From: Nitrospira japonica
Lineage (GTDB): Bacteria > Nitrospirota > Thermodesulfovibrionia > Thermodesulfovibrionales > SM23-35
Direction of reading: 5' to 3'
DNA: 41,664 bases
Assembly (NCBI GenBank): GCA_020725385.1
Contig: DYFC01000064.1
Coordinates: 1-41,664, forward strand
The position numbers were made by a program, and so were the translations under genes. Positions within the stretch are counted from its first letter, which is position 1; the number at the start of each line of letters is the position of its first letter. Below are positions 7,520-38,370 of this stretch, one piece after another. The notes beneath the pieces are model-generated. The model made no database searches. It saw only the letters and a program-made list of their open reading frames with translations, and was not told the DNA's origin.

Positions 7520-8173
7520 TTAAATACCTGCTTTAAGTTTTCCCGGTCTCATATTTTTAGACCAATCCTTAGGACTGTTAATATTTTTTAAATCATCAAT
7601 TTTATCGAGTTCTTTCATTCTTTCATATATAAGTAACCACGCACACGGAGTTTCTGGATTCGCTTCACACTTGCCGTTTTTTGAGCCGCCACATGGACCG
7701 TTTAACAATCCCTTTGGACATCTTGTTACAGGACATATGCCACCGGTTAAAGAAAGAATACAATCTCCGCAAGCAGCACACATCTCGATGAAATTTCCTT
7801 CTTCATCGGAAACACCTATAAATTTTGTATTCATTGCAGGAAATACCGGAATTTTTCTGAATTTTTCCGAAAGAGCCTGAACACCTGCTCCGCATGCCAT
7901 TGAAAGAACAGCATCAGATTCTTCAATATCTTTTTTTATATTTTCCAGGTATTTTGGTTCGCATTGTCTTGAAATGGTCTTGCCTTTCAAGATTCTTTTT
8001 TCTTTATTATTACGACTCGAAATACGTAATGCAGAAGATAGAAGTTCGACCTGTTTCTGTCCTCCTGTAAGGCAGACACTTACACATTCACCACAACCAA
8101 CAATAAGAACCCTCTTAAAATTTTCTATCATCTTTTTTATATCTTTTAAAGATTTAATTTCTGCTATTACCAT
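7520..8173 (-). CDS. metV: MetV, Zn/Fe-S small subunit of methylene-THF reductase
   Basis: GCGECVSVC, RQCE, ACGAGVQ, CAACGDC, CPVTRCPKGLLNGPCGG, CAW. Confidence 0.92.
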   Translation of the reverse strand: MVIAEIKSLKDIKKMIENFKRVLIVGCGECVSVCLTGGQKQVELLSSALRISSRNNKEKRILKGKTISRQCEPKYLENIKKDIEESDAVLSMACGAGVQALSEKFRKIPVFPAMNTKFIGVSDEEGNFIEMCAACGDCILSLTGGICPVTRCPKGLLNGPCGGSKNGKCEANPETPCAWLLIYERMKELDKIDDLKNINSPKDWSKNMRPGKLKAGI

Positions 8174-8209
8174 GCTGTCACCTTCTTTAATTGAAATATT
8201 CTTTGAATT

Positions 8210-10156
8210 TTAATCATAAACTATTGTCAATTGCTCCGGATCCAGACCGCTTTCTTCAAGTATCTTCTTTGCTTCATTCACATGTTTGTTTAACCAGTTT
8301 CCACATTCTTTAAAATGACACTCCCTGTCTTTACATGCAAGAATTTTAACTTTAGTACAACCTTCTTCAAATGGTTTTATAAACTGCGAAATATCAATTC
8401 TTGCAACACAAGGTTTGCCTATTGATATTCCTTTTGAGATTTCTGTTTCAGGTTTTACTGCCTTCTTATAATGGCAGTAAAATTCTATTTCAGAAGCATT
8501 ATCTGTAATATTTTTTACTGCATCTATCGCATGTTGCAATTTATTCATACTTTGTTCTCTTGTCTCAAGTTTCATATCAATTGCAAGCGCAGGACACTCG
8601 GATGCACAAATGCCGCAAGCCTGACACTGACTTATATCAATTTTTGGTTTATCATCCGAAGCAACAGGAACATTGTAAGGACAAACACGTACACAATTAA
8701 GACACCTGACACAATCATCAGAAATTTCAGCTCCTGCCCCGCAATTAAGGCACCGTTGAGCTTCTGAAATCGCTTGTTCCCAGGTAAATCCAAGATTAAC
8801 TTCCTTAAAACTCTTGATTCTTTCTTCAACGGTCAATTGCGCCATTTTTTGTTGGGGTCTTTTTTCTATGAGCGGAATAATTTTTTCATCAAGAGGCCTT
8901 AATACAGTTGGCTCTTCATTTTCTTTTGGTGGTAAACTGCGTAAATATCTGTGTATTGCTATTGCAGCTCTTTTACCCGAAGCTATTGCATCAATTACAC
9001 TCATAGGTCCGCTTACAACATCACCACCAGCGAATACTCCTTTAAGGTTAGTAGTTCCGGTATCGTCTTTTACTACTATAGTGCCCCTTTTCCCCGATAT
9101 TTTCTCTATATCCTTAATATCATCTGTTCTTGGATTGTATCCTATAGCTAAAATTACAGCATCTGCCATTATTTCAAATTCAGAGTCTTCAACTGGCACC
9201 AATCTTCTCCTTCTTGATTCATCAGCTACAAAACGCATTTCAGTACAACGAATTTTTTCGATCCTGCCTCTTCCAATAAATTCCAATGGAGCAGAAAGAT
9301 AACGGAATTTCACACCTTCGCTTTCAGCTTCTTCTACTTCAATTCTTCCAGCAGGCATTTCATTTATAGTTCGTCTATATAAAACCGTGACATCTGGAGA
9401 ACCAAGCCTAATACAAGTTCGGGCAGCATCAAGAGCAGTATGTCCGCCTCCAATAATAACTACCTTTTGTCCGAGATATGGCCTTTGTCCTCTACTAACC
9501 TGTTTTAGAAATTCTACTGCAGTGATAACTCCAGGTAGTTCTATTCCTTTACATTTAGGAAACATGCTTTTTTCGCTGCCAAGTGCAATAAAAACCGCCT
9601 GATACTCTTTCATTAGTTCATCAACTGTAATATCTTTTCCAAGAGCAGTATTGGTTCTTGCCTCAACACCCAATGATAATATACGTTCAATATCATTCAT
9701 TACAACATTCTTGGGCAATCTATATTCAGGAACTCCACGTGTCATCATTCCACCTAATTCATCATGAGCTTCATAGACAACAACATTGTATCCGAGTAAT
9801 GCAAGGTCATGAGCTGCTGTTAAACCTGATGGACCACCGCCTACTATAGCGACTTTTTCTGTATAATAAGGACCTGTTTTGAAAACATCTTTTTGTTCCA
9901 TCGTTTCATCAGAAGCAAATCTTTTTAATGAAGCTATTGCAATCGGTTCGTCAATTTGCCCGCGTCTGCATGCAGACTCACATGCGCGGGTACATATTCT
10001 TCCACATACAGATGGAAAAGGATTAACCTCTCGAATTATTCTTATTGCTTCGGATACATCACCTTTTGAAATCGCATAGACATAACCACGAACATCTGTT
10101 CGAATTGGACATGCAGCCTGACAGGGAGGCATAGCATTAACGCTCATATCAATCAA
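8210..10156 (-). CDS. FAD/NAD(P)H oxidoreductase (GltD/NfnB-like) fused to a 2x[4Fe-4S] ferredoxin and an MvhD-like domain
   Basis: PPCQAACP/CGRIC...CESAC, GGGPSG, GGGHTALD..YRR, AGGD; CxxCxxCxxxCP twice; C-terminal FYC...PCVARID...ACKDRECHF. Confidence 0.85.
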   Translation of the reverse strand: MIDMSVNAMPPCQAACPIRTDVRGYVYAISKGDVSEAIRIIREVNPFPSVCGRICTRACESACRRGQIDEPIAIASLKRFASDETMEQKDVFKTGPYYTEKVAIVGGGPSGLTAAHDLALLGYNVVVYEAHDELGGMMTRGVPEYRLPKNVVMNDIERILSLGVEARTNTALGKDITVDELMKEYQAVFIALGSEKSMFPKCKGIELPGVITAVEFLKQVSRGQRPYLGQKVVIIGGGHTALDAARTCIRLGSPDVTVLYRRTINEMPAGRIEVEEAESEGVKFRYLSAPLEFIGRGRIEKIRCTEMRFVADESRRRRLVPVEDSEFEIMADAVILAIGYNPRTDDIKDIEKISGKRGTIVVKDDTGTTNLKGVFAGGDVVSGPMSVIDAIASGKRAAIAIHRYLRSLPPKENEEPTVLRPLDEKIIPLIEKRPQQKMAQLTVEERIKSFKEVNLGFTWEQAISEAQRCLNCGAGAEISDDCVRCLNCVRVCPYNVPVASDDKPKIDISQCQACGICASECPALAIDMKLETREQSMNKLQHAIDAVKNITDNASEIEFYCHYKKAVKPETEISKGISIGKPCVARIDISQFIKPFEEGCTKVKILACKDRECHFKECGNWLNKHVNEAKKILEESGLDPEQLTIVYD

Positions 10157-18874: not shown

Positions 18875-20935
18875 ATGAATCTCGACAGGGTATTTCAAAC
18901 TGCTTTTGATTTCTATAAAAAGGGCGATATTCAAAGAGCCGAACAATCTTTCCGTAAATTACTCGAAAAGAAGCCAAATCATCCGGAATCCCTCCGTCTT
19001 CTTGGAATTATATTATTACAAACAGGTAAATTTAAATCAGCTATAGAAATCTTCCTGAAAGATATACGTCTTAATCCAAAAAATGCTGATGGCTATAATA
19101 ATCTTGGCCTGTCTTATTTTGGACTGGAACAATATGACAAAGCCATTGAATCTTTCAATCAGGCAATAAAACTGAATCCTTCCCACTTTCATGCTTATTA
19201 TAATCTCGCAAATTCTTATAAAAATTTAAGACAATTTGAAGAAGCGATCGAATGCTACAAAAAATCTCTGAATATAAATCCATATTTCGTTGAAGCACAT
19301 AATAATCTTGGAGATGTATATCAGGAAAAAGGCATGTTTGATGAAGCTATACAGAGTTATAAAAATGCTCTGAGAATCAATTCAAATTTCGGCAACATCT
19401 ATAATAATCTCGGGCTTGCGCTATACAAAAAAGGAGTTTTTGAAGAGGCATTAAGCTACTTTAAAAAGGCTCTGGAACTGAATCCAAAACTTGGCGATGC
19501 ATATAATAATATTGGCAATTATTTTTTCAATAATAATGAAATAGATAAAGCTATTGAATATTATTCAAAAGCCCTGAAATTAGAACAGAATTATGCCACA
19601 TATAATAATCTCGGGAATGCTTTCAAAGAAAAAGGTTTGCTTGAGGAGGCAATCAAATTTTATGAAAAAGCACTAAATGCCAATCAAAATGCAATAGACA
19701 CATCAATCGATTTGGGCGATGTGTTCAGAAAACAGGGAAAGCTTGATGAAGCTATATCACATTTTCAGAAACTACTCGATAATAATCCAAAAAATCCTGT
19801 TGTATATATTAATTTAGCGCTCGTATTTCAGGAAAAAGGACTATTCGATGAAGCTTTTAAATACTATAACAAAGCCCTTGAAATTAATCCAAATGTTGCT
19901 GAAGGTTATAATAATCTTGCCCTTGCTTTTATTGAAAATGGCCATTACGAAGAAGCCCGCTCAAATCTGGAAAAAGCTATCCAGATAAAACCAACCATGG
20001 CAAATGCACATTTTAATTTTGCAACTCTTTTATTGCTTGAAGGTGACTTTACAAGAGGCTGGGAAGAATATGAATGGAGATGGAATGCATCTGATTTCAA
20101 ATTTATGAAATTCAATTATTCACAACCTCAGTGGAACGGTGAAAAGTTTGAAGGATTAAAAATACTTTTGCACGCGGAACAGGGATTAGGCGATACGATT
20201 CATTTTATGAGATACATAAACCTTGTTCTGGAAAAGAATCTCGAAGTTATATTCAGGTGTCCGAAAGAATTATTAATACTGGCAAAATATTCTTTCCCGG
20301 AAATTCAAATAATCACCTTTGAAGAACCTCTGCCTGATTTTGACTTCCATTGTCCTTTAATGAGTCTTCCGTATGTATTTGAAACAACAATTGACAATAT
20401 ACCATCAAAAATACCATATATTAAAACAGAAAAGTCATTAATCGAGAGCTGGAACCAAAAAATCGGTAAAGACCCGAATTTCAAGATCGGCCTTGCATGG
20501 TCGGGTAATCCAAAATATAAAAGAGACCGGCATCGTTCATGTTCACTAAAAATTTTTTCCACGATTGCACAAATTGAAGGTATTTCATTATACAGTCTGC
20601 AAAAAGGACATGGTACCGAACAATTAAAGGAACTGCGCGATGAATTAAAAATTATCGACTTTGATAGTGAAATAAAGGATTTTTCAGATACTGCAGCTAT
20701 AATCGAAAATTTAGATCTTACTATATCCGTAGATACTGCAGTGGCACATCTTACAGGTGCAATGGGAAAACCTGTATGGACAATGTTGCCCTTTGTGCCA
20801 GACTGGAGGTGGATGCTGAACAGGGAAGACAGTCCATGGTATCCAACCATGCGTCTCTTCAGGCAGCATACTCCCGGCGACTGGGTTACGGTATTATCCA
20901 ATATAAAGAAAGAACTCAGATTAATACTCGGGTAG
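18875..20935 (+). CDS. TPR-repeat glycosyltransferase (GT-B, GT9-like C-terminus)
   Basis: About 11 TPRs, then GWEEYEWR, EQGLGDTI, SVDTAVAHL, DSPWYPTMRLFRQ. Confidence 0.88.
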   Translation: MNLDRVFQTAFDFYKKGDIQRAEQSFRKLLEKKPNHPESLRLLGIILLQTGKFKSAIEIFLKDIRLNPKNADGYNNLGLSYFGLEQYDKAIESFNQAIKLNPSHFHAYYNLANSYKNLRQFEEAIECYKKSLNINPYFVEAHNNLGDVYQEKGMFDEAIQSYKNALRINSNFGNIYNNLGLALYKKGVFEEALSYFKKALELNPKLGDAYNNIGNYFFNNNEIDKAIEYYSKALKLEQNYATYNNLGNAFKEKGLLEEAIKFYEKALNANQNAIDTSIDLGDVFRKQGKLDEAISHFQKLLDNNPKNPVVYINLALVFQEKGLFDEAFKYYNKALEINPNVAEGYNNLALAFIENGHYEEARSNLEKAIQIKPTMANAHFNFATLLLLEGDFTRGWEEYEWRWNASDFKFMKFNYSQPQWNGEKFEGLKILLHAEQGLGDTIHFMRYINLVLEKNLEVIFRCPKELLILAKYSFPEIQIITFEEPLPDFDFHCPLMSLPYVFETTIDNIPSKIPYIKTEKSLIESWNQKIGKDPNFKIGLAWSGNPKYKRDRHRSCSLKIFSTIAQIEGISLYSLQKGHGTEQLKELRDELKIIDFDSEIKDFSDTAAIIENLDLTISVDTAVAHLTGAMGKPVWTMLPFVPDWRWMLNREDSPWYPTMRLFRQHTPGDWVTVLSNIKKELRLILG

Positions 20936-21075
20936 ATTTTTACCTTTAATTTTCAAAATTTCTTGTTATATAATTAATAAATATATAAAATTAGCTGTTT
21001 CCCTCTTTTTTTCGGGAAGCATTCATCAAAAAATAATCTCGAAGATAAATTCTCTATATTGAAAGGAGATATCCA

Positions 21076-22647
21076 ATGCTTACAGTCTCAGTTGCAGTCT
21101 TTAATCCCAATCCTGAAATTTTTAATAATTTTCTTCGTTCATTAAAAACATATACACCAGAAATGACCCAGCTTCTTATTTTCGACAATGGCTCCGATTC
21201 AAAAGAATTTGTCGATATAGTTAAGAAATATTTTAACGATTCTACTACAGATAACAAGGTTAAATTAAAAATAACCCATAATAATAAAAATATTGGATTT
21301 GGCAGAGCGCATAATCAAAATCTCTCTTTTGCAAACAATAAATTTTTTGCAGTACTTAATGATGATATTGAATTCTTTGAAAACTGGGCATCTCCTATGA
21401 TTAAAATTCTGGATGAGAATCAAAAAGTAGCACAGGTTGGTCCAAAAAAAAATGTTTTTAATACTTTAAAAGGCGACAAAATCGGACAATGGGAAGATAC
21501 AGAAGAACCGGAATACTGCGAAGCTGTATGCTTTATTATGCAAACCTCGCTCGCAAAAAAATACCATCTCTTCGATGAAATATACCAATACGGTTATTTT
21601 GAAGATATGGACCTGTCATTACGGCTTAGAAAAGATGGTTATTCCATAAGGAATGCTGATATTAACTGGCAGCATCATCGGGGCACGACAACAATCAGAA
21701 TGATAGCAGAGAATTTTGACCTTCCCGGATATTACATTCTTAATGAATATAATTTCAAAAAGCGCTGGAATGCCTATGTTATGAAAGGAAGATTCGGTAG
21801 AACCATTGTTATTAAAAGAGCGGGAGATCTCGAGGATGTATTTCTTTTAACACCTGTAATTGAAGCCCTCAGAGAAAAAGAACCTGACAGTGTAATTTTG
21901 CTCATGACCAAAACTCCTGAATCGGTACAGGGATGTCACGACATAGATGGTTATGCCGGGTATAACAATCCAGTCCCCTGCGATGTGCTTTTTGATCTTG
22001 ATTATTCATATGAGAAAGATTTCCGCAAACATATTGTTGATGCCTATTCTGAAATCACAAATGTAATAACCAGAAAAAAATCCGGCACACTATATATAGA
22101 AAAAAATGACATGGAATATGTTGATAATCTTTTGAAGGATATTCACCTGCCTGTTGCACTTGATTTCAGTGATGCTCCGGACGGAAAAAGATGGAAAAGA
22201 CAGAATTATGTTGAATTAGGAAGAAAAATTAAACAGGCAGGATTCAGCATAATCACGGTAGGTAAAACTTCAGAACAAACAGCGGATTATCTTGATGCAG
22301 ATTTAAGTTTAATCAACGTGTTATCTTATCAACAAACAGCCCTGACAATAGCAAAGAGCAAGCTTTTCATAGGAACCGATGGACTTCTCGCGCATTTTGC
22401 ACAATCAACCAGGACTCCGAGCATTATTCTATATGGCTGCACACTTCCGGAATATGTTGCAGATATTTCTCTTTCTTCACTTTTTCCTATAGTATCTCCG
22501 GTTGCCTGCAAGGGTTGCAGACATAGATATGCGGCAGGAACAATTGTTGCGTGTCCGAGAAATTTCGCCTGTATGGAAGTAATCAAACCGGATGATGTAT
22601 TTGAAGCTTTCAAAGAGATAACAGCAAGGTTGAATATCGCTCCATAA
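21076..22647 (+). CDS. GT2 + GT9 fused glycosyltransferase
   Basis: FDNGS, NIGFGRAHN, LNDD, YFEDMD; then RAGDLEDV, FIGTDG..AH and CxxC...C..C. Confidence 0.82.
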   Translation: MLTVSVAVFNPNPEIFNNFLRSLKTYTPEMTQLLIFDNGSDSKEFVDIVKKYFNDSTTDNKVKLKITHNNKNIGFGRAHNQNLSFANNKFFAVLNDDIEFFENWASPMIKILDENQKVAQVGPKKNVFNTLKGDKIGQWEDTEEPEYCEAVCFIMQTSLAKKYHLFDEIYQYGYFEDMDLSLRLRKDGYSIRNADINWQHHRGTTTIRMIAENFDLPGYYILNEYNFKKRWNAYVMKGRFGRTIVIKRAGDLEDVFLLTPVIEALREKEPDSVILLMTKTPESVQGCHDIDGYAGYNNPVPCDVLFDLDYSYEKDFRKHIVDAYSEITNVITRKKSGTLYIEKNDMEYVDNLLKDIHLPVALDFSDAPDGKRWKRQNYVELGRKIKQAGFSIITVGKTSEQTADYLDADLSLINVLSYQQTALTIAKSKLFIGTDGLLAHFAQSTRTPSIILYGCTLPEYVADISLSSLFPIVSPVACKGCRHRYAAGTIVACPRNFACMEVIKPDDVFEAFKEITARLNIAP

Positions 22648-24176
22648 TGGAAACCGGTTCGCTTACTATAGTTTTTTCCACAAGAGAAGAAAATCCCGGC
22701 TTCATAAAACACCTGGAAGAAACCTCAGGAATTCATTCTATTGAGATTCTTCAATTTATAAACATGGGTGAATATTCACTCACAGAAATTTATAATAAAG
22801 GGCTTAATGAAGCTAAAAATGACATAATCGTGTTTTCCCACGATGACATAATTCTTGATAAAAAAGATAAATGGGCAGAAAAAATATTAAGTCATTTCAA
22901 TAAAAGTGAATTTGGGATAATCGGAAAAGCAGGCACTACCAGCCTTACAGAATCGGGACGCTGGTGGGATGAACCACATCTAATGGTCGGAGAGGTATGG
23001 CATCAACAAACAGATCCTAACACAGGAAAAATAAATAAATGGGAAAACAAATATAGCGGTAATTTTGGCAATAGAATTATAGAAACAATAATTATAGACG
23101 GTCTATTTTTTGCAGTTCATAGAAGAAGAATAAAAACACATTTTGATGAAGACTTCAAAGGTTTCCATTTTTATGATATAGATTTCAGCTTTGCAAATCA
23201 TCTTTCGGGAGTCAAAATAGGTGTTGTTTTCGATTTCGGAATTACTCATAAATCAATCGGCATAACAAATCAACAATGGGAAATGAATAGAGCAAAATTC
23301 GTTTCTAAATGGAAAAGTTTTCTTCCCTATAGCATAACTCCTGATATTATATACAATAATTTTAAAATAGAACTATCCACACAGCCAAAGCTCGCTGTTA
23401 TAATGAGAAGACATAATTCCGGGTCTTTGCTACGATGTATTAACAGTATTTCAAAGACAACATCATATGAAAATTACAAAATATATATAGCTGACAATAA
23501 ATTCAATCATGAGGAATCCGAAACCATTGAAGATATTTTAAAAGAAAACAAAAATATTATATTTCCTGATTACCACGATAAAAGTATTGTTAAAACTTAC
23601 AATTATATAGTTCAAAACCACGTCGATAAAGATGCAGAATTAATACTATTCTGTGAAGATAACATTGAATTATTAAACGACTCTTTAAGCAGATTTGTTG
23701 AAATTTATAATGACAGAAAACAATTGATAGGGACAATGGGGCTTAGACTCCATACAACAAATAATAAAATTTACCATGCGGGTATTTCATTATATGTCGA
23801 TAACAGTAATCGACTAAGAATATCTTTTTCAGGAAATGGAAGTTATTATTCATACAATCCCGGCATACAATATTACGTAACTGCAATAACAGGTTCTTTT
23901 ATGTTAGTAAGCAAGGAATTATTTTTCTCCCTTGGAGGATTTGCAGAATACTATCAGGAAGCATTTTATGATATTGAATTTAACTTAAGAGCAATTGTAT
24001 TCGGAAGAGCAAATTGTTTTGTAGGAGATGCTGTAGCATATTACCATACCCCTTTGGTCAAAGAAAATGATAGTTGTAATAATGAAAATTTCAATAAAGA
24101 TTTTCAAAAATTGATCAATTTCATAAATCAAAATTTAAATAACCAAAACATAATGCAGCATATACATTTTCTCTAA
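22647..24176 (+). CDS. Two-domain GT-A (GT2-like) glycosyltransferase
   Basis: YNKGL..AKNDIIVFSHDD, IDGLF, GFHFYDID; the second GT2 domain is degenerate (CEDN). Confidence 0.78.
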   Translation: METGSLTIVFSTREENPGFIKHLEETSGIHSIEILQFINMGEYSLTEIYNKGLNEAKNDIIVFSHDDIILDKKDKWAEKILSHFNKSEFGIIGKAGTTSLTESGRWWDEPHLMVGEVWHQQTDPNTGKINKWENKYSGNFGNRIIETIIIDGLFFAVHRRRIKTHFDEDFKGFHFYDIDFSFANHLSGVKIGVVFDFGITHKSIGITNQQWEMNRAKFVSKWKSFLPYSITPDIIYNNFKIELSTQPKLAVIMRRHNSGSLLRCINSISKTTSYENYKIYIADNKFNHEESETIEDILKENKNIIFPDYHDKSIVKTYNYIVQNHVDKDAELILFCEDNIELLNDSLSRFVEIYNDRKQLIGTMGLRLHTTNNKIYHAGISLYVDNSNRLRISFSGNGSYYSYNPGIQYYVTAITGSFMLVSKELFFSLGGFAEYYQEAFYDIEFNLRAIVFGRANCFVGDAVAYYHTPLVKENDSCNNENFNKDFQKLINFINQNLNNQNIMQHIHFL

Positions 24177-24220
24177 TTACTTAATTGTAATTATAACTAA
24201 CCAGTTTTAAACAAAACATA

Positions 24221-24509
24221 GACTCATCGTGAAAGTGAGTGGGTAAAAAATGATGAACATAGACTTCAATCTTGCTTGTAATAAGGATAAAAGAACATGG
24301 CAGGAGGTGGAAATATCCCAAAGGGTTAATCTTCTATTTGTCATTATCCGGCTTGACCGGATAATCCAGTATAAAGAAAATGGGAATCTTTCTCAACATC
24401 TGTATGTGTAAGCAAGTAAAACTGACGAGAAAATTTCTGGATTCCCCGATCAAGTCGGGGAATGACATAATTTATTATCGGTATTACCCACTCGATTACG
24501 CGAAGACCC
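24221..24509. mobile_element. MITE-like element with imperfect 26-bp terminal inverted repeats enclosing an inverted REP-like pair
   Basis: TIRs 24221-24246 and 24484-24509 match at 19/26. Palindromes lie at 24339-24369 and 24437-24467; 24432-24467 is identical to 10388-10423. Confidence 0.6.
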
Positions 24510-24543
24510 AAAATATATAAAAAGTCTTACTTAGAAGATAAAA

Positions 24544-26304
24544 ATGAATGCAAACGAAGCTATTGAGTTAGCACTAAAAGAACAAAAATCAGGAAATCTG
24601 AAAATCGCAGAAAACATATACAGAAAAATTCTTGAAGTTCAACCCGATAACGTTAATGCTCTACATTTTTTGGGCCTGATTTATTTTGAAAAAAAAGATT
24701 TTGACTCGGCTATAAAATACATTGGCGAAGCTTTGAATTTAGAACCAACTTATCACGAGGCATTATTAAATATGGGGGTAGTTTTACAGGCTAAAGGCAG
24801 TTTTGACGAAGCTCTGCAATACTTCCAAAAATCACTTCAATTCAATCCAGATTGTGCAGAAACCTTTAAAAACATAGGAACCATTCTTCAAGCAAAAGGT
24901 GATTATGATGAAGCTATAATAAATTACAAAAAGGCATTAGAAATAAATCCTGAATTACCGGATATATATAAAAATCTTGCCTATCTTTTTAGAGATAAAG
25001 GAATGCTTAATGAAGCAATAATCTTTTTTAAGAAAGCCCTGGAATATTATCCCGACCTTTCCGATATTCATAATAATCTTGGATTGGCTCTAAATGATAC
25101 CGGGAAAATCGATGAAGCAATAGAGTGTCTAAGAAATGCTATAAGATTAAATCCAGAAAATGCCGAGCTTTATAATAACATGGGGGTCATACTCCGGGAA
25201 AAAGGACTTTTTGACGAAGCCACAGGATGTTTTACACAAGCTATTATACTTAACAACAGATTTCTGGAAGCTTACAATAATATAGCCGTCTCCCTTAGAG
25301 AAAAGGGGCATATCGAAGAGTCAATATATTTTTTAAAAAAAGCACTGGATATTAATCCGGATTTTGCATCTGCACACTGGAATCTTGCTCTTATTTTTCT
25401 CTTAACAGGAAACTATCCTCAAGGATGGGAAGAATATAAATGGTTCTGGAAACTCAAAGGCACAAATGATTTTCATTTTTCCCAACCTCAATGGGATGGT
25501 TCCAAAATTGAAGGTAAAACTTTACTTGTATATGCCGAACAAGGATACGGCGATACAATACAATTTATAAGATATATACCTCTGATTACAGAGACCGGCG
25601 CTGAGGTTATTCTTCTTTGTCAGGAGGAACTCAAAGAATTATTTCTCAACTTAAGAAATCTAAAACAGGTTATAACTTTTGGTGAAAAATTACCGCATTT
25701 TGACTTTTATTGTTCAATTTTAATGCTTCCCGCAATATTTCAGACAACACTTGAAAATATTCCTGTGAATATACCATATATTTTTACAGAGCAATCACTT
25801 ATTAATGAATGGCATGAAAGACTTGATAATAATTCAAAACTTAAAATTGGTTTAGTATGGTCAAGCGGACATAGAAATTCTACACTTCGATTTAGGTCAG
25901 GCAATCTTAATTCTTTCTCTATGCTTACATCAATAGAAGGTGCCGAATTCTATAGTCTTCAAAAGGGTATTTCAAATGAAGAGGCAAATAATTTTTATCA
26001 AAAAATGAAAATTTATGATCTTACAAACAACATATCCAATTTTAATGATACAGCAGCTTTAATAATGAATCTTGATTTAATTATTTCTGTTGACACTTCT
26101 GTCGCGCATCTTGCAGGAGCATTGGGCAAACCTGTATGGGTGTTATTGCCCTCGGTGCCTGACTGGCGCTGGATGTTAAACAGGGAAGACAGCCCTTGGT
26201 ATCCTACAATGAGACTTTTCCGTCAAACAACACATGGAGACTGGGATACAGTGATAAAAAAGGTATATAATGCAATTTTAGACTTTATAAAAATCAAATC
26301 TTAA
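24544..26304 (+). CDS. TPR-repeat glycosyltransferase, paralog of 18875..20935
   Basis: About 8 TPRs; EQGYGDTIQF, SVDTSVAHL, DSPWYPTMRLFRQ. Confidence 0.88.
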   Translation: MNANEAIELALKEQKSGNLKIAENIYRKILEVQPDNVNALHFLGLIYFEKKDFDSAIKYIGEALNLEPTYHEALLNMGVVLQAKGSFDEALQYFQKSLQFNPDCAETFKNIGTILQAKGDYDEAIINYKKALEINPELPDIYKNLAYLFRDKGMLNEAIIFFKKALEYYPDLSDIHNNLGLALNDTGKIDEAIECLRNAIRLNPENAELYNNMGVILREKGLFDEATGCFTQAIILNNRFLEAYNNIAVSLREKGHIEESIYFLKKALDINPDFASAHWNLALIFLLTGNYPQGWEEYKWFWKLKGTNDFHFSQPQWDGSKIEGKTLLVYAEQGYGDTIQFIRYIPLITETGAEVILLCQEELKELFLNLRNLKQVITFGEKLPHFDFYCSILMLPAIFQTTLENIPVNIPYIFTEQSLINEWHERLDNNSKLKIGLVWSSGHRNSTLRFRSGNLNSFSMLTSIEGAEFYSLQKGISNEEANNFYQKMKIYDLTNNISNFNDTAALIMNLDLIISVDTSVAHLAGALGKPVWVLLPSVPDWRWMLNREDSPWYPTMRLFRQTTHGDWDTVIKKVYNAILDFIKIKS

Positions 26305-26319
26305 TCTTTTCAAAAAATT

Positions 26320-28404
26320 ATGGATATTAACTTAAAGATAAGACTTGCATATGATCATCTTCAGGCTGGAGATATTGAACAATCTATAAAGATATGCAGG
26401 GAGATTATAGCATATGAACCTTTAAATCCATATATTCTTGAGTTTCTCGGGATAATTTTTCATAAAAAAGGTGATTTACAGTCTGCAATCGAATATATCA
26501 GGAAAGCTGTAGAAATCAAACCTGATAGCAGTGAAACTTTGATTAATTTAGGAACGTTACTCGAACAACAGGGAAACTATTTTGAAGCCCAAGAATGTTT
26601 TGAAAAAGTCCTACGTATAAACCCTGAATCAATTATTGCAAAAAATAAATTGGGTTTGATTTTTCTAAAAACCGGGCAATTCTCCAAAGCTGTTTCTGTT
26701 TTTAAGCAACTCACAGAAATTTATCCATCATATGAAAACTACTTCAATCTCGGAATATCATATTATAGTAACAATGAAATCAATAATGCCTTGGAAAGTT
26801 TTAAGAAAGTTATCTCATTAAAACCTGATTTTTTAGATGCATATATTAATCTTGAATCAATTTTAAAAGAAAAAGGCCTGTTTGAGGAAGCAAAATATTA
26901 TCATAATCTGGCTATTAAAATAAAACACCCATTTGATACTTTACCTAATTCAACAGGTAATATTCATCAAGATTTATGCAATAAATGGATAAAATGCATG
27001 TCTATCTTTCCTTTAATTTATTCGGATGAAAACGAAATATTAAAAGTTAGAGAAGATTACACAACCCTATTACAGGATATATCAAATACAATTTTCAATT
27101 CTAATATTGATAGGATAAAGACACTTTACGATTATACAGGGAAATACAAACCTTTTTATCTTCCTTATCAGGGATTAAATGATAGAGAGTTACAGAAAAT
27201 ATACGGGAATGTCTTACATAAAATTATTTTATCCAAATATCCATTCCTGGCAAATGATAGTTCTAATGTTCCAAATCTTCAAATGGATAAAATTCGTATA
27301 GGATTTGTGAGCGGTTTTTTCTATTACCACTCTGTTTGGAAAATACCGGTTAGAGGCTGGATAGAAAATCTAAATAAGGATAAATTCTCTCTCTATGGAT
27401 ATTACACAGGAAATAAAAAAGACGATGAAACAAACTTTGCGCGAAAATGTTTTGATCATTTTTTTGAAGAGCTTCATGATTTTGAATCGCTTGCTAAAAA
27501 AATTCTCGAAGACCGTATTGATATATTAATTTATCCGGAAATTGGAATGGACCCCTTAGCATTAAAACTTGCTGCTGTTAGACTTGCTCCTGTACAATGT
27601 GCATCATGGGGACATCCTGAAACATCGGGGCTTCCAACAATAGATTATTTTATATCCGGAGAAATGCTCGAAATATCTAATGCAGATAATCATTATACCG
27701 AAAAATTAATAAGACTGCCAAATCTTTCGATTTTTTATAATCCTCCTAAATTTCAGAAAATCAACATGGGTAGAGAATCATTCGGGCTACGACAAAATTC
27801 TATTCTTTACCATTGCTGTCAGGCACTTTATAAATTTCTACCACAGTACGATGAAATTTTTCCAAAAATAGCAAGAGAGGTTGGTAACTGTCAGTTTATA
27901 TTTTCATCTTTCCCTTTCATAAGTAAAGCATTAGAAAAATTTCGGTTACGTCTTAATAATGTCTTTGCAAAATATAAATTAGATGCAGATAAATTTATTG
28001 TATTCCTTCCTCAACTCAACCCATTACAATATGATGCACTTAACCGCTTGAGTGATATTTTTCTCGATTGCATAGGCTGGTCGGGTTGCAATTCAGCACT
28101 TGAAGCTTTATCCCGTAATCTTCCTGTTATAACAATGCCCGGAGATTTAATGCGAAGCCGTGAAGGAGCTGCAATTTTGAATAAAATGGGCTTGGGAACA
28201 ACCATCGCAAATTCAATTGAGGAATATATAAGCCATGCTGTTATATTAGGAAATAATCCAAAATTCAGGAAAGAAATATCAGAGGAGATTGCCAATAAAT
28301 TTCATCTTGTATGCAATGATAAAACATCCATCACCGCACTCGAAAATTTTTTTACAAAAATGGTGGAAAATCGGTCATCAAAATCTAATGATAAAAAATG
28401 TTGA
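26320..28404 (+). CDS. TPR + GT41 (SPINDLY/OGT-like) glycosyltransferase
   Basis: TPRs, then RIGFVS..HSV, RLAPVQ..WGHPETSG..IDYF, LYK, DIFLD, PVITMPG..R. Confidence 0.85.
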   Translation: MDINLKIRLAYDHLQAGDIEQSIKICREIIAYEPLNPYILEFLGIIFHKKGDLQSAIEYIRKAVEIKPDSSETLINLGTLLEQQGNYFEAQECFEKVLRINPESIIAKNKLGLIFLKTGQFSKAVSVFKQLTEIYPSYENYFNLGISYYSNNEINNALESFKKVISLKPDFLDAYINLESILKEKGLFEEAKYYHNLAIKIKHPFDTLPNSTGNIHQDLCNKWIKCMSIFPLIYSDENEILKVREDYTTLLQDISNTIFNSNIDRIKTLYDYTGKYKPFYLPYQGLNDRELQKIYGNVLHKIILSKYPFLANDSSNVPNLQMDKIRIGFVSGFFYYHSVWKIPVRGWIENLNKDKFSLYGYYTGNKKDDETNFARKCFDHFFEELHDFESLAKKILEDRIDILIYPEIGMDPLALKLAAVRLAPVQCASWGHPETSGLPTIDYFISGEMLEISNADNHYTEKLIRLPNLSIFYNPPKFQKINMGRESFGLRQNSILYHCCQALYKFLPQYDEIFPKIAREVGNCQFIFSSFPFISKALEKFRLRLNNVFAKYKLDADKFIVFLPQLNPLQYDALNRLSDIFLDCIGWSGCNSALEALSRNLPVITMPGDLMRSREGAAILNKMGLGTTIANSIEEYISHAVILGNNPKFRKEISEEIANKFHLVCNDKTSITALENFFTKMVENRSSKSNDKKC

Positions 28405-33304: not shown

Positions 33305-33673
33305 GTGTTAAAACAAAATTTAGTTAGAAATATTATTTTATTGACGATACTCGTGTTCGTTTCCTTATCTTTTGCACAGGCTGAAGATAAAACAATGGTT
33401 GGTACATTATCAGCAACCATGGATGAGAAAAATAATACTGTAACTGCTATGTTTGTAGGTTATTGTGAAGGAGAACCCGTGATAATTGGACCTTCAACAT
33501 GGTCAAGTTCGGCCGATGATTTTTCCAAAGCCAGCACCGAAGATATTGGCAATAAACTATGCGGGAGTGAAAAATCTGTAAAAAAGGTTACAAAATCAAC
33601 CAAAACAAACAAAGATGTTGTTGCAGAAATTGTAGTTACAGGCCCTAGTTCCGCTATTATTGTAGGTAGATAA
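33305..33673 (+). CDS. Small secreted hypothetical protein
   Basis: Signal peptide ending AQA, two cysteines, SD AGGAGG before GTG. Confidence 0.75.
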   Translation: MLKQNLVRNIILLTILVFVSLSFAQAEDKTMVGTLSATMDEKNNTVTAMFVGYCEGEPVIIGPSTWSSSADDFSKASTEDIGNKLCGSEKSVKKVTKSTKTNKDVVAEIVVTGPSSAIIVGR

Positions 33674-33687
33674 AAATAACTTTTTCA

Positions 33688-33716
33688 ATGCCTCTGGGAA
33701 AGACTCTCAGAGGCAT
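33688..33716 (+). terminator. Hairpin after the secreted-protein gene
   Basis: ATGCCTCTGGGA-AAGAC-TCTCAGAGGCAT; no U-tract on the + strand. Confidence 0.45.
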
Positions 33717-33741
33717 AATGAAAGGAGGGCTTCGAGTCATA

Positions 33742-34026
33742 ATGTTTAAAAAAGAGCTGCGAATGTACGAGAGAACGCCTTTTGTTGAGTCTTTAAAATA
33801 TTCTGTTGCAATAATGGATTTTAGGAGCCTGAAAAAAGTCGATGATGTTGCAGTTGTAATTGATCTGAGTGAAAAAGGCATGGGAATTTTAACAAGCCAG
33901 CCGCTTGAAGCAGGAAATGTATTAACTTTTAAAAGAAAAAACAAAACACCGACAAACACAGCTGTTGTAAAATGGGCAGATAGAATAGATGAGACAACTT
34001 ATAGAGCAGGTTTGAAATTCACTTAA
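33742..34026 (+). CDS. Stand-alone PilZ-domain protein
   Basis: RMYER and DLSEKG motifs; AVVKW...YRAGLKF end. Start moved to the ATG after GGAGG (uncertain). Confidence 0.82.
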   Translation: MFKKELRMYERTPFVESLKYSVAIMDFRSLKKVDDVAVVIDLSEKGMGILTSQPLEAGNVLTFKRKNKTPTNTAVVKWADRIDETTYRAGLKFT

Positions 34027-35120
34027 ACAAAAATTAACGGGCTGACAGAAATTTCAAGTGGCAACTTATATTTGCCGGGTTTTGCATCATCTGATAAAAT
34101 TATTCTGTATTTTAGTTTCACCATTAAAGGGTCTCTGCCATGATACGGATGTAATGTTATCGCACCTTCGGGAGTAACCTTTACCTCATGATCCAATCCT
34201 TCAATGCTGATTTCCCTGAACGGTCCGGAAAGTCCCTTAAAAACAACCATATATCCTGAGAGATTAAAATTCTGTATTTCTAACTGGGCAGCTGAAGGAA
34301 GTTCAATGTATCCACGATTTATGTCTTCCGGAGTTATCTCAAGTTCTGAAGTATGATAAATAACTTTCAAAGCTGTATGTGCATCAGTAGAACCCGAAAT
34401 TGCCACTTTATCATTCTTTGTATATTCTCCTGCATATACTTTCACAAAAGGAGCAAAAGACAAAATTAAAACCAGCATAGCTGTAATAAGTTTATTCTGT
34501 AAAGATATTATTTTAGATAAGTTTGAATATGTAATATACCCCTTTTGAACAAGAATATCACCTATATTATTTGATGAGAATTCTTTTGCTGCCAAAGCTT
34601 CTTTTAGTTGTTCATTTGTTATTAGACCCGATGAAACTAATAGCTGTCCAAGCCTTAGTTTATTAGCACTATATGGTATCTCTGATTGTTTTCTCTGAAA
34701 TAACAACACAGCATTTAATTGTTCTTCAGAAATAAACCCAAGTCCGAGCATTACCTTTCCAAGTTTTTCACCTGTTTTTTTCTGTATCCTTAATGCAGTA
34801 TCGAGTTGTTGTACAGTGATTTCCCCAGCTTGTAATAATAAATCTCCGAGTTTTTTGCGCACACCTGCCGAAAGATTCAAAGCATCTTCGATACTATTCA
34901 GATTTTTATTTATGGAAAGAACAGCTTTAAGTTCTACAGGATCAAGAACCCCCATATCTACAAGAATTTCTCCAAGCATTTTATTTGTTTCTGTCTGTCT
35001 TTCAAGGGCTCTTTTCAAAGATAACTTTGAAATAAAATTTCCAAATCGCAAGAATTGGCCGAGTTTTAATCCTTTAAAAACTTTTTCTTTAGTTGTATCT
35101 TCATATTTATTTTTTTGCAT
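34023..35120 (-). CDS. Triple-MshEN c-di-GMP receptor fused to an internal signal/TM segment and an exported beta-rich domain
   Basis: Three pairs of 24-aa xLGxxLxxxGxxxxxxLxxxLxxQ motifs with 5-aa linkers, then KLITAMLVLILSFAPFVKVYA. SD GAGGG precedes ATG 35120. Confidence 0.78.
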   Translation of the reverse strand: MQKNKYEDTTKEKVFKGLKLGQFLRFGNFISKLSLKRALERQTETNKMLGEILVDMGVLDPVELKAVLSINKNLNSIEDALNLSAGVRKKLGDLLLQAGEITVQQLDTALRIQKKTGEKLGKVMLGLGFISEEQLNAVLLFQRKQSEIPYSANKLRLGQLLVSSGLITNEQLKEALAAKEFSSNNIGDILVQKGYITYSNLSKIISLQNKLITAMLVLILSFAPFVKVYAGEYTKNDKVAISGSTDAHTALKVIYHTSELEITPEDINRGYIELPSAAQLEIQNFNLSGYMVVFKGLSGPFREISIEGLDHEVKVTPEGAITLHPYHGRDPLMVKLKYRIILSDDAKPGKYKLPLEISVSPLIFV

Positions 35121-35235
35121 ATTTTTTCCCTCAAAATATTTTTTGCAAAATATATGCCATATCATATGGCCTGAAGAAAAATACTTATTCTTGCATAGCT
35201 ACAAAAATTCCATTATAAATCAAAAAGTTTTATGC

Positions 35236-36477
35236 TTAAATACGTGAATAATTTACTCCTTTTTCAGCGCCGTCAACTCTAAATATGGAATCATAGTCAA
35301 TAATCTGTCTAATCTGTTCCATATTAATCTGGTTATAAAAGACAGGCTTTATTAATCTTCCATTACCGGGGTAATTTATAAGATACTTAACAAGGGTTTT
35401 ATCTGATAAAATCATCTTTGAGATGCAGGTATTTTTATATAGTCTTATATATGTGTTTATATTAATACTATCCGGTAATGGTCTTTTCAGATTATCAAGG
35501 TGTTGTTTTATTTCAGACTCTTTTTCATACGGGAATCCTGTTAGTAAATCAACAACTACTTTAATTCCTGCTGATTTAGCACTAAAAATGAAGCGTTCAA
35601 TATCAGACCAGTACATATCACACTTTTTATAAGTATCAACAGTTAAAGTTATTAAATAAACTCCTGTTTCCTTCATCAATTGGAAGAGTTTTTTGTTAAA
35701 GTTATCGGGCTTCATATAAACCGCCCATTTTATGTCCAGACTTTCCTTCTTCAAAGCATTACAGAAGTCTATACAATATTCGAGGTTTTCGTTGAATTCA
35801 GAGTCGCATAGATGAAAATGGTTGCATCCAATATCAACAAGCGCCTTAATTTCACTAATTACATCATTAGGGTTTTTAAAAAAAACTTTTGTATTCGCTT
35901 CAATGCAGTAACAACAGGATGAACTGCAGCCTTTATGAGTCTCAAACCCTGCAACCCCACCCTTTTCTATATATTTTTTATAATCAATTGCCGAAATTAG
36001 TCGATCAAGTATAACCATGCCCGAACATGCCGAATAAAATATCCTCGTATTTAACTCATTGTTTAAATTTGAAAGAATATAAGGAAGGTCTTTTTCAGCA
36101 GGACCGGAGACTATAAAATCAGCTTTAAGATACTCAAGAATTCCCTCTGGATCTGCAATTATTCCAGCACCGCCAACGATTATTTTTAATCCATAAGCAT
36201 GTTTGAGATAATCAATAATTATTTTTATCTCATCGAGGAAAAACTCATTGTTTAAGAAAAGTGCAGAGTCAATGTTTCTTACAGTGATGCCGGCTATATC
36301 AGGCTTGAAAGAAATTACAGCATCATCGATTTCTTTAAAGATATTTTCAGTAAAACATAGATCAACTATTTCTGTCTTATGTCCTGCAGAAATTAATGAA
36401 CCTGCAATATATTCGAGCCCTACGGGAGGGACAGGTGGATACATATATCTGTTAGGATTAATAAGCAGAACCTTCAC
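35236..36477 (-). CDS. B12-binding radical SAM protein (putative methyltransferase)
   Basis: PPVGLEY, GITVRNID, VGGAG, ETHKGCSSSCCYC, DSEFN. Confidence 0.88.
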   Translation of the reverse strand: MKVLLINPNRYMYPPVPPVGLEYIAGSLISAGHKTEIVDLCFTENIFKEIDDAVISFKPDIAGITVRNIDSALFLNNEFFLDEIKIIIDYLKHAYGLKIIVGGAGIIADPEGILEYLKADFIVSGPAEKDLPYILSNLNNELNTRIFYSACSGMVILDRLISAIDYKKYIEKGGVAGFETHKGCSSSCCYCIEANTKVFFKNPNDVISEIKALVDIGCNHFHLCDSEFNENLEYCIDFCNALKKESLDIKWAVYMKPDNFNKKLFQLMKETGVYLITLTVDTYKKCDMYWSDIERFIFSAKSAGIKVVVDLLTGFPYEKESEIKQHLDNLKRPLPDSININTYIRLYKNTCISKMILSDKTLVKYLINYPGNGRLIKPVFYNQINMEQIRQIIDYDSIFRVDGAEKGVNYSRI

Positions 36478-36480
36478 AGC

Positions 36481-38370
36481 TTAATATCTATCTTTATTCC
36501 ACATCTCTGGAGTAAATCTTACCACTCTATTTCTTCCTGTCTCTTTTGCTTTATAAAGAGCAACATCAGCAAATTTAATAGCTTCCCAAAACCCCTGTGT
36601 GTCTTTTGGCAATTCGCTTACCCCTATACTAATGGTCTTTGTTATTGTTACTCCAGCAATAGAAATCTTTGTTTGTTCCATATTTGCTTTTATTTTTTTT
36701 GCGATCTCAACAGACATATCAGGCTGAATATCAATTAGAAGAACAAGAAATTCTTCACCGCCAAATCTTATTATTAGATCAGAATTTCTTACGCTCTTTT
36801 TTATAATATCAGCTGTAATTTTAAGAACTTTATCTCCATTGTCGTGCCCGTATTTATCATTTACCTCTTTGAAAAAATCAAGATCGCACATTAAAATTCC
36901 AAGAGTTGTGTTTCTTCTTTGAATGCCCGCAACTAAACTTTCGGAAGTTTCCTCAAGAAATCTTCTGTTGTAAATATCAGTTAGCCCGTCTCTTATTGAT
37001 GTTTCTTTGAAAGCTCTCATCACCCTTTTCGCTTCTAAAACAGGCTGGGCTTCTCTTATATACTGCCTTGCTTTAAGAATTCTCTGTTTTACCTCTGCTT
37101 TTGTAACCTCGGATTTATCAAGTATTAACTGGATAACACCTCCAACCTTACCCGAGATAAATATAGGATGACATATATATATTTCATTTTCTTTTATTTT
37201 TGCATACTTACAAATATCAGGATGTTCTTCAGAGGAAATAATATGTCCTGTTCTTTTTGCCCTGCAAAGATCACAATTAATCAATATATCAGCCTTGCAA
37301 TTTATCTCTGAAACATCAACATCTTTAGGGAAAACAGTCTTTATGTTATTTTTATAAGTTGAGATCTCATACATAGTACATTTAGGAAGTCCATAATTAC
37401 CTGTTATTATTTCTCCAAGCCTGTTATAAACATCTTCAACTGTCTCATCCTCTTCTATAACTTTCTTAAAATTTGTCAAACCCTCAAGCTCTTCAATAAA
37501 CTTATTGTATTCATTTGCCAATGTTCCAAGTTCATCTTTTGAGCTTATTGATATTTCTTTTGCAAAATCCATTTTAGTTGTAAATGCCCTAAAATTTGCT
37601 GCTATCGAATTAATCGGCCTAACTAAATTTATCGATATAAGATATCCAAATATTATTGAGAGTGTTGCTCCGGTAAGAAGTGTTAACAGTATCAAAACAA
37701 AAGCAACTTTAACTCCTTTTTTGATTGCCCCTATATTCAAGTTACTTTCCTTTGACAGATTAATAGCAATTGTATCAAGTATATTTAGAGAATTTTGATT
37801 TAAGCTATTATATTCAGAAAGTTTCAACTTGAGTATGTTTGAAATTTGAAGAGGTTTTTTTATATTTTTTATTTCTTGAAGAATAGATTTTAGCTTTTGT
37901 AGATTATAAATTACTTCTTCTATTTGTTTTTTTTTCACATCACCGGTAATTTTTTTAATAGAGAATTCATTTATTAAGATATTTTCACCTGAATACTCTC
38001 TAATAACTCCGCCTTTTAACAATGTTTCGAGATTAAAAATGCATTCATCTAAAAGTTTTTCATTTCTAGATATTATTGATTCTATTTCTTTAGTATTTTT
38101 AAGAAGAATTGTATTATTAACAGAAATATTGGCATATGCTAATTTTTTAATAGTACTACTAATTGCTCTCTGATGCGGCTCATTATAATTAACTAATTTA
38201 CTTGATTCATAATTAAGATAAAACAAGAAAAAAAGCCCGATTACAGAGGTAGCAACAATCCAGAAAAGGGTTCCTGCAGAAAAAAGCATAAACTTTTTTC
38301 TGATGGGAAGATCAGTAAAAGTGAGTGTTTGCAATAAATTATTGAAAATATTTTTAATAGTTTCCTTCAT
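36481..38370 (-). CDS. Membrane diguanylate cyclase (periplasmic sensor-HAMP-GAF-like-GGDEF)
   Basis: Two TM segments, HAMP (SKDELGTLA), DGLTDIYNRR, DLDFFKEVNDKYGH, I-site RNSD, GGEEF. Confidence 0.92.
   Translation of the reverse strand: MKETIKNIFNNLLQTLTFTDLPIRKKFMLFSAGTLFWIVATSVIGLFFLFYLNYESSKLVNYNEPHQRAISSTIKKLAYANISVNNTILLKNTKEIESIISRNEKLLDECIFNLETLLKGGVIREYSGENILINEFSIKKITGDVKKKQIEEVIYNLQKLKSILQEIKNIKKPLQISNILKLKLSEYNSLNQNSLNILDTIAINLSKESNLNIGAIKKGVKVAFVLILLTLLTGATLSIIFGYLISINLVRPINSIAANFRAFTTKMDFAKEISISSKDELGTLANEYNKFIEELEGLTNFKKVIEEDETVEDVYNRLGEIITGNYGLPKCTMYEISTYKNNIKTVFPKDVDVSEINCKADILINCDLCRAKRTGHIISSEEHPDICKYAKIKENEIYICHPIFISGKVGGVIQLILDKSEVTKAEVKQRILKARQYIREAQPVLEAKRVMRAFKETSIRDGLTDIYNRRFLEETSESLVAGIQRRNTTLGILMCDLDFFKEVNDKYGHDNGDKVLKITADIIKKSVRNSDLIIRFGGEEFLVLLIDIQPDMSVEIAKKIKANMEQTKISIAGVTITKTISIGVSELPKDTQGFWEAIKFADVALYKAKETGRNRVVRFTPEMWNKDRY

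Follow-up and report, generated by a model that had tools for sequence, protein, structure and literature searches.

A triple-MshEN protein with a hydrophobic segment and an undescribed exported beta domain: a possible membrane-tethered c-di-GMP receptor from a family linked to chaperone-usher pilus operons

MshEN is an established c-di-GMP receptor. According to PMC5013675, its motif comprises two 24-aa stretches, RLGxx(L/V/I)(L/V/I)xxG(L/V/I)(L/V/I)xxxxLxxxLxxQ, with 5 residues between them, and the isolated MshEN_N binds c-di-GMP with a KD of 0.35 μM; the same paper reports MshEN in fusion with domains of unknown function. Another setting, given in PMC8669469, is an NfrB-type glycosyltransferase with a C-terminal MshEN. 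As for signals passing from the cytoplasm to the periplasm, PMC3032545 and PMC3032553 describe the LapD-LapG system, in which a cytoplasmic c-di-GMP receptor module of an inner-membrane protein controls binding by the periplasmic domain. Here we describe a gene that joins three MshEN units to a hydrophobic segment and a beta-rich domain. It lies in the window, i.e., the whole stretch of 41,664 nucleotides of Nitrospirota DNA that was analysed.

The sole long frame at the site is an ORF at 34023..35165 on the minus strand. Within this frame the ATG at 35120, which the initial annotation had taken as the start codon, is the likely start and gives a 365-aa product, because a GAGGG stands 7 nt 5' of it, as seen on inspection of the start site, and all close homologues are 364-366 aa long. 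The features of the gene and its product are as follows.

34026..35120, minus strand: coding sequence of the 365-aa protein, with three MshEN units, a hydrophobic segment and a putative exported beta domain (from the frame, the start site and the homologue lengths)
34023..34025, minus strand: stop codon of the 365-aa protein gene
34908..35066, minus strand: MshEN_N unit 1, residues 19-71, linker TETNK, partly degenerate (47.7 bits)
34695..34853, minus strand: MshEN_N unit 2, residues 90-142, linker KKTGE, best match (63.9 bits); aligns with MshE 5htl and PilF 6f8l
34497..34655, minus strand: MshEN_N unit 3, residues 156-208, linker EFSSN (59.6 bits)
34431..34496, minus strand: residues 209-230, NK-LITAMLVLILSFAPFV-KVYA, a candidate signal-anchor or internal signal peptide; a small-x-small site precedes G231
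34026..34430, minus strand: residues 231-365, a low-confidence linker of ~18 aa and then a predicted beta-sandwich of an undescribed exported family

The six 24-aa motifs begin at residues 19, 48, 90, 119, 156 and 185, and the translation pairs them through the three linkers just as the initial annotation had read them. The curated NCBIfam model NF053729 ('c-di-GMP_motif, MshE-related'), which describes a 53-residue MshE-related c-di-GMP motif, matched three stretches of the protein (E 4.6e-45, 151.2 bits against a cut-off of 38), and the top score went to unit 2, the middle pair that had been named as closest to the consensus. As examined by eye, motif 1a is degenerate: position 7 is R, and the G of position 10 stands at 9. 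Motif 1b opens with M. Units 2 and 3 fit the published motif, the exceptions being position 11 of motif 2a (E) and position 24 of motif 3a (K). These two units look fully c-di-GMP-competent, and unit 1 is doubtful. Among solved structures, residues 1-230 matched Thermus PilF (6f8l) best, at 7.5e-12, and MshE (5htl) at 1.5e-9. The Pfam and NCBIfam searches found no T2SSE ATPase domain in the 365-aa protein, nor a HAMP domain, a degenerate GGDEF-EAL module or a LapG-binding periplasmic domain; the match of the PilB model was confined to residues 172-225, and the NCBIfam NfrB model matched the MshEN units weakly. Profiles and sequence confirm the overall architecture given in the initial annotation, namely three MshEN pairs, a hydrophobic segment and a C-terminal beta part, all without an ATPase.

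The end of the third unit runs almost directly into the hydrophobic segment. In the full-length AlphaFold2 model, the overall pLDDT of which is only 57.9, a single helix (residues 198-221) continues the last MshEN helix. The 19-aa window of highest hydrophobicity covers residues 211-229, LITAMLVLILSFAPFVKVY, and it is followed by VYA-GE and then by 135 aa; the hydrophobic segment itself consists of 16 residues between two lysines. These residues can be laid out as a signal peptide, with NK as a positive n-region, LITAMLVLILSFAPFV as an h-region and KVYA-G as a site with small residues at -3 and -1, which is the n/h/c arrangement with a V-x-A site that had been pointed out before. The close junction is a property of the family, given that 0-2 aa separate the non-polar run from the last unit in 55 of the 63 fused proteins examined. 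The mean net charge before and after this run was +1.65 and -0.44 in the 63 fused proteins, and +1.53 and -0.08 in 77 unfused forms, i.e., relatives of the beta domain that have no MshEN unit. From the flanking charges, together with the existence of stand-alone exported forms, we infer that the N-terminus is cytoplasmic and the C-terminus periplasmic.

Two readings of this segment have to be weighed. The one that we favour, tentatively and at somewhat less than an even chance, is that the protein is a membrane-tethered inside-out c-di-GMP receptor which follows a LapD-like logic with unrelated parts. It is preferred because bitopic proteins of such a layout are normally not cleaved, and because the fixed junction argues for coupling between the MshEN array and the membrane segment. 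In the other, its main rival, which we regard as unlikely, signal peptidase I would cut after VYA and the MshEN array would be a c-di-GMP-responsive pro-region that controls whether, or at what rate, Sec engagement or cleavage takes place, so that a suitable c-di-GMP level would be required for the release of the mature beta protein into the periplasm. A specific form of this, slightly more doubtful again, is that c-di-GMP bound to the unit whose last helix enters the h-region would decide the access of the signal peptide to the Sec machinery or the signal peptidase. In favour of such a pre-protein, fused forms resemble unfused ones in the length of the non-polar run (median of 17 aa and 18 aa, respectively), the flanking charges, the length of the linker and the small-x-small sites, and sites of this kind (VYA, TYA, AHA, AQA, AYA, VHA and ACA) are kept in close and distant fused relatives. 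The hydrophobic segment thus appears as signal-peptide-like as that of the stand-alone forms, and it may be cut off, with loss of the tether. On the other hand, [AV]xA sites, which were present in 53 of 63 fused and 56 of 77 unfused proteins, were no commoner in the fused forms than in shuffled Ala-rich tails (53 observed against 47.3 expected), and therefore their count cannot decide on cleavage; taken alone, the sequence does not choose between a tethered receptor and a cleaved signal peptide. Also against a pre-protein, we found no literature that combines an internal signal peptide, signal peptidase and c-di-GMP, nor do we know of a bacterial protein in which a cleaved signal peptide follows a folded cytoplasmic domain longer than 200 aa.

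We then considered the part that follows the segment. When the C-terminal part was modelled by AlphaFold2 with an alignment of 149 rows, an all-beta sandwich of ten strands and one short helix was predicted (pLDDT 90.4, pTM 0.79), with low confidence for the first ~18 residues. This prediction, and the existence of stand-alone relatives with ordinary N-terminal signal peptides, uphold the earlier description of the C-terminal part as exported and beta-rich. The variable and poorly predicted linker suits conformational signalling badly, which would count against the membrane-tethered receptor. The C-terminal domain of the 365-aa protein had no Pfam or NCBIfam match; among its relatives, Pfam matched the domain in 0 of 149 at E<=0.01 and in 0 of 85 at E<=5, SCPU included, and those Pfam families that do match these relatives map to the MshEN part. 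A profile search of PDB sequences with the beta domain gave 0 matches at E<=10. No PDB entry reached E<=1e-3 in a Foldseek search, and the highest TM scores (0.45-0.48) were those of the chaperone-usher pilins PapA, FimA and BPSL1626 and of CanA. The nearest named clusters in the Atlas were CS1 fimbrial (0.89), SCPU and DUF4402 (0.88) and also WxL, all below 0.9, so that these clusters are leads only. In addition, an hhalign comparison of the beta domain with 14 SCPU neighbours gave a probability of 38% over 62 columns. By sequence, then, the beta domain is not an SCPU-family member, and its likeness to chaperone-usher pilins in fold and sequence is weak.

The fusion is widespread. A word-based search returned 7 close relatives including the query, one of which displayed a source name, 'hypothetical protein' of a Nitrospirae MAG. 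When a profile of the beta domain was run against 1.84 billion cluster representatives, 749 matched at E<=1e-3 and 290 at E<=1e-10, and in most of the 150 matches listed (of the 749) the domain lay at or near the C-terminus. The domain thus represents an undescribed exported family, without a name, of several hundred clusters. We built an MshEN-unit HMM from the family of the window protein and applied it to 156 proteins, i.e., the listed profile matches plus the close family. No unit was found in 90 of them (median length 168 aa), one unit in 19, two in 15 and three in 32, so that 66 are fused, and the fusion recurs in several phyla; one ORF contained four HMM stretches, and one relative has a receiver domain in addition. 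Whether the fusion was a one-off had been set as a test beforehand, and the 66 fused proteins of 156, together with the recurrence of the fusion in several phyla, show that it is not. An MshEN-TM-beta architecture or a link of it to pili was not described in the literature that we found; note that this literature was covered in part and that the supplementary architecture tables of PMC5013675 may list the architecture.

The relation between fused and unfused forms bears on both readings of the segment. Stand-alone forms carry N-terminal signal peptides, and their existence is proved by whole-genome loci. Specifically, in one genome (G040) a stand-alone 163-aa protein has a classic signal peptide, and a distinct gene for three MshEN units comes after it, and another (G022, locus L025) encodes a 172-aa form that has no MshEN part and whose N-terminus is the tail of the last motif together with the same hydrophobic segment. 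In a quick domain tree the fused proteins are mixed with the unfused ones, and the starred branches require no fewer than 12 changes of the unfused state; truncated gene calls among the 'unfused' metagenome entries could inflate this mixing. These observations fit a cleaved pre-protein, since the identical mature domain occurs behind an ordinary N-terminal signal peptide, the locus L025 form keeps the tail and the segment as its own N-terminus, and such volatility in the number of units is easiest to understand if the mature product is unaffected; the possible inflation of the interleaving by truncated calls weakens the last point. Conversely, it speaks against a membrane-tethered receptor that the stand-alone forms manage their periplasmic task with no cytoplasmic portion, and that fused and unfused forms are mixed on the tree.

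We also examined the gene neighbourhoods of the beta domain. In a sample of 401 Nitrospirota genomes, the beta domain was found in 36 and the PapD_N chaperone in 34; when the two lists were compared by hand, 24 genomes had both, 12 the beta domain only, 10 PapD_N only and 355 neither. The 24 genomes with both span nine families, and related genomes among them are not independent. In 14 of these 24, the beta gene and PapD_N lay within 6 kb on one contig. At three loci (L030, L065 and L080), Pfam identified SCPU, PapD_N chaperone and Usher genes around the beta gene, an example of the order being SCPU-SCPU-[MshEN3-TM-beta]-chaperone-usher-SCPU. Other phyla were scanned with one genome per species and a closer alignment of eight sequences, which gave 53 loci, 52 of them with a beta ORF, from Polaromonas, Ramlibacter, Massilia glaciei B448-2, Thermomonas, Gallionella, Casimicrobiaceae, Steroidobacteraceae, Syntrophorhabdaceae, Acidobacteria and others. 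With HMMs built from the Nitrospirota chaperone-usher clusters, a chaperone or usher was detected in 36 of the 52 loci (Proteobacteria, Acidobacteria and others); note that the 16 loci where neither was detected include several short contigs. In 31 of the 36 the nearest pilus gene was at most 300 nt away, and in 29 the orientation was convergent. A chaperone or usher accompanied 15 of 18 fused and 21 of 34 unfused forms, and at the locus of M. glaciei B448-2 (L102) a beta gene with two MshEN units stood adjacent to a pilus operon. The suggestion in the initial annotation of a fimbrial-subunit-like passenger fits the SCPU/PapD/usher operons around the gene; in fold and sequence, the likeness to pilins is weak (TM of at most 0.48, hhalign 38%). 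The link of the family to chaperone-usher pili had not figured in that annotation.

The pilus association bears on the direction of signalling as well. A domain that meets a chaperone or an outer-membrane usher has to leave the inner membrane, which adds to the case for a cleaved pre-protein. The opposite direction, i.e., outside-in coupling, would have the periplasmic domain report the state of pilus assembly or of the envelope to the MshEN units and alter their affinity or oligomeric state, thereby tuning free c-di-GMP or a cytoplasmic partner. Consistent with this, the domain accompanies periplasmic assembly machinery, and signalling genes (GGDEF, REC-HD-GYP-type, sigma-54 activators and a hybrid kinase) are frequent neighbours. 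We nevertheless consider it very improbable, since no output activity is known for MshEN itself, the stand-alone forms lack a cytoplasmic part altogether and the linker is flexible. As a separate matter, a gene cluster found beside 15 of 28 loci ('cluster 1') had been taken up as a possible GGDEF link and was dropped because it is heterogeneous, the 10 members checked comprising 3 GGDEF proteins, 3 REC-HD_5 proteins, 3 sigma-54 activators and 1 hybrid kinase; therefore no general adjacency to a cyclase is claimed.

In the genome from which the window comes, the surroundings of the gene are different from those in most of the family. The neighbouring genes are as follows.

33305..33673, plus strand: sm122, a clade-specific small protein of 122 aa, predicted to be exported, of no recognised family; convergent to the target gene
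33688..34026, plus strand: PilZ-domain protein with RxxxR and DxSxxG motifs in its translation; its 3' end overlaps the stop codon of the target by 4 nt
35236..36477, minus strand: B12-binding radical SAM protein, its gene placed between those of the cyclase and the target, with synteny in family-level relatives
36481..38370, minus strand: membrane HAMP-GGDEF diguanylate cyclase, two genes upstream of the target, with GGEEF and, five residues upstream of it, RNSD (RxxD site)

No match to SCPU, PapD_N or Usher was found in this genome, which is 96.6% complete, and tblastn of 32 chaperone-usher proteins against it returned OmpA-like domains only. Among five family-level relatives with the fused gene, a chaperone was present in one, on a different contig. 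The cyclase gene is syntenic in relatives, and the target gene converges tail-to-tail on a two-gene unit of sm122 and the PilZ gene; neither this unit nor the lack of chaperone-usher genes in the genome had been pointed out in the initial annotation. Sm122 has 38 close homologues, query included, and it had no Pfam and no Atlas match; its profile gave 19% against SCPU, from the signal peptide only, and 1% against the beta domain. It occurs in 5 of the 401 genomes, four of which are exactly the beta-domain carriers of family f1 that lack PapD_N, where it is adjacent to the beta gene, and the fifth has no beta-domain match. A predicted complex of the beta domain with mature sm122 scored 0.01 (mark 0.32), and this carries no weight either way. 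The position of UvrB, which also lies beside the locus, is plain synteny.

The absence of detected chaperone-usher genes here, the cyclase and PilZ genes that flank the locus and the many MshEN proteins of the genome (17 matches, including a 128-aa protein that consists of MshEN units only) would suit a further reading, in which the protein is a membrane-anchored buffer or scaffold for c-di-GMP. The units would then store or present the c-di-GMP made by the neighbouring cyclase and may recruit a cytoplasmic partner, and the periplasmic domain would be a means of placement or a remnant. We hold this to be improbable. The beta domain is the best-conserved part of the protein in close relatives, with 45 of 135 columns invariant at 46-80% identity, it is intact in four chaperone-less genomes of the window's family, and MshEN meets the membrane segment at a fixed junction, all of which argue against a mere anchor.

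Returning to the preferred reading of a membrane-tethered inside-out receptor, we propose that it would work as follows. The protein would be inserted into the inner membrane, its N-terminus facing the cytoplasm, and would bind up to three c-di-GMP per chain, one per MshEN_N four-helix unit. Two residues after the last MshEN helix, the single hydrophobic segment would begin, and it would bear in the periplasm a flexible linker of ~20 aa and a beta-sandwich of ~115 aa. Occupancy of the MshEN array would alter the state or the clustering of the membrane segment, and on this change would depend whether a partner in the periplasm is retained or released by the periplasmic domain. In most lineages, where the beta family is probably an accessory of SCPU-type ('archaic') chaperone-usher pilus operons, the partner would be among the components of pilus assembly. 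In the source genome, the likeliest partner would be sm122, because chaperone-usher genes were not found there, and the likeliest source of c-di-GMP would be the upstream HAMP-GGDEF cyclase. The cyclase and PilZ genes of the window, and GGDEF or REC-HD-GYP-type genes near other fused loci, are in line with such a receptor. Note that any role assigned to the protein in this genome is an extrapolation from the family, the usual pilus system of which is absent here, and that sm122 has no recognisable family.

To our knowledge, c-di-GMP has been found to control chaperone-usher pili only through transcription, the chaperone-usher pathway itself has no cytoplasmic part, and it is not known to receive cytoplasmic input after translation; nor do we know of such a component, or of any cytoplasmic sensor, in the described Csu systems. 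If the proposal is correct, a widespread protein would wire one to three high-affinity c-di-GMP modules, across the inner membrane, to a periplasmic domain linked to pilus operons, thereby providing a post-translational entry point. Inside-out c-di-GMP signalling would then have a second example, unrelated to LapD; alternatively, the protein would be the first with a ligand-gated signal peptide. In the case of a pre-protein, c-di-GMP would act directly on whether a periplasmic component of chaperone-usher pili is exported or released.

Compared with LapD-LapG, only the proposed inside-out logic is shared. LapD has degenerate GGDEF-EAL domains, a HAMP domain and two membrane helices, whereas the present protein is unrelated to it in sequence and consists of MshEN units, one short segment and a flexible linker before its beta domain. 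With V. cholerae MshE (5HTL) it shares the 53-residue unit of two 24-aa motifs and a 5-aa linker, but it has neither the MshEN_C subdomain nor a secretion ATPase, and instead has three consecutive units with a membrane segment and an exported domain behind them. Thermus thermophilus PilF (6f8l; c-di-GMP-binding domains 8pdk and others) likewise has several MshEN-type units per chain, with four matched stretches; PilF is, however, a cytoplasmic type IV pilus ATPase, whereas our protein has no ATPase and is predicted to cross the membrane. NfrB is also a membrane protein in which MshEN brings a cell-surface process under c-di-GMP control and a local cyclase feeds it, yet there the regulated part is a cytoplasmic enzyme domain, and here the only other domain is probably periplasmic. 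Finally, archaic (Csu/SCPU-type) chaperone-usher pili, as presented in PMC4654587 and PMC9452303, are related to the present family through gene order, with genes of the domain tail-to-tail with or inside SCPU-PapD-usher operons, and through the beta-sandwich fold, with pilins as the nearest though weak structural neighbours; by sequence the beta domain differs from SCPU (0/85 at E<=5, and 38% over 62 columns in hhalign). The MshEN receptor itself is thus known, and what is new here is the exported output domain family placed on it, together with its association with pili.

The target and the PilZ gene are convergent, and the 4 nt at positions 34023-34026 of the window are common to their stop codons. 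A tail-to-tail layout was also observed in other phyla, where genes for the C-terminal exported beta domain of the target lie tail-to-tail with the last gene of chaperone-usher operons, and in some loci (L095 and L115) the beta gene overlaps this last gene by 4 nt. In the loci L085, L087, L088 and L089 from Polaromonas MAGs, the usher gene is convergently faced by two tandem beta-domain paralogues.

The usher of a Nitrospirota chaperone-usher operon (L030, 748-3642, - strand) carries a C-terminal OmpA-family domain. At locus L062, where a chaperone is expected between the fused beta gene and the usher, positions 7523-8279 hold just two small frames, one of 79 aa and one of 82 aa; the PapD_N search noted for this locus gave no match in genome G173, and the chaperone could have been disrupted or have diverged.

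Elsewhere in the window, the HAMP-GGDEF cyclase (36481-38370, - strand) has a Cys/His-rich stretch of ~150 aa between HAMP and GGDEF. This stretch has no Pfam match and might serve to sense metals or redox state. Positions 18875-28404 (+ strand) encode a series of large TPR-repeat proteins with fused or adjoining glycosyltransferase domains (GT2, GT9 and GT41-like).

Other MshEN proteins were found in the window's own genome (G000) and at one further locus (L031), as follows.

G000, contig C39, 7527-8537, + strand: MshEN protein of 337-340 aa; N-terminal domain, three MshEN units, tail resembling the T2SSE_N C-subdomain
L031, 2918-3940, + strand: MshEN protein of 337-340 aa; same layout as the C39 protein
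G000, contig C18, 866-1249, - strand: 128-aa frame; MshEN units almost throughout, three overlapping NF053729 matches
G000, contig C29, 26535-27611, + strand: 359-aa frame; DUF4388-like N-terminus, one MshEN unit, hydrophobic segment, C-terminal tail

In genome G040, a gene for the 337-340-aa three-unit protein directly follows a stand-alone beta-domain gene and is itself followed by a PAS-GAF-HD-GYP-like gene. The 128-aa frame may encode a free c-di-GMP binder. The product of the 359-aa frame would be, beside the target, a second MshEN-membrane-periplasmic protein of this genome, and its C-terminal tail may resemble a GspG-type pseudopilin.
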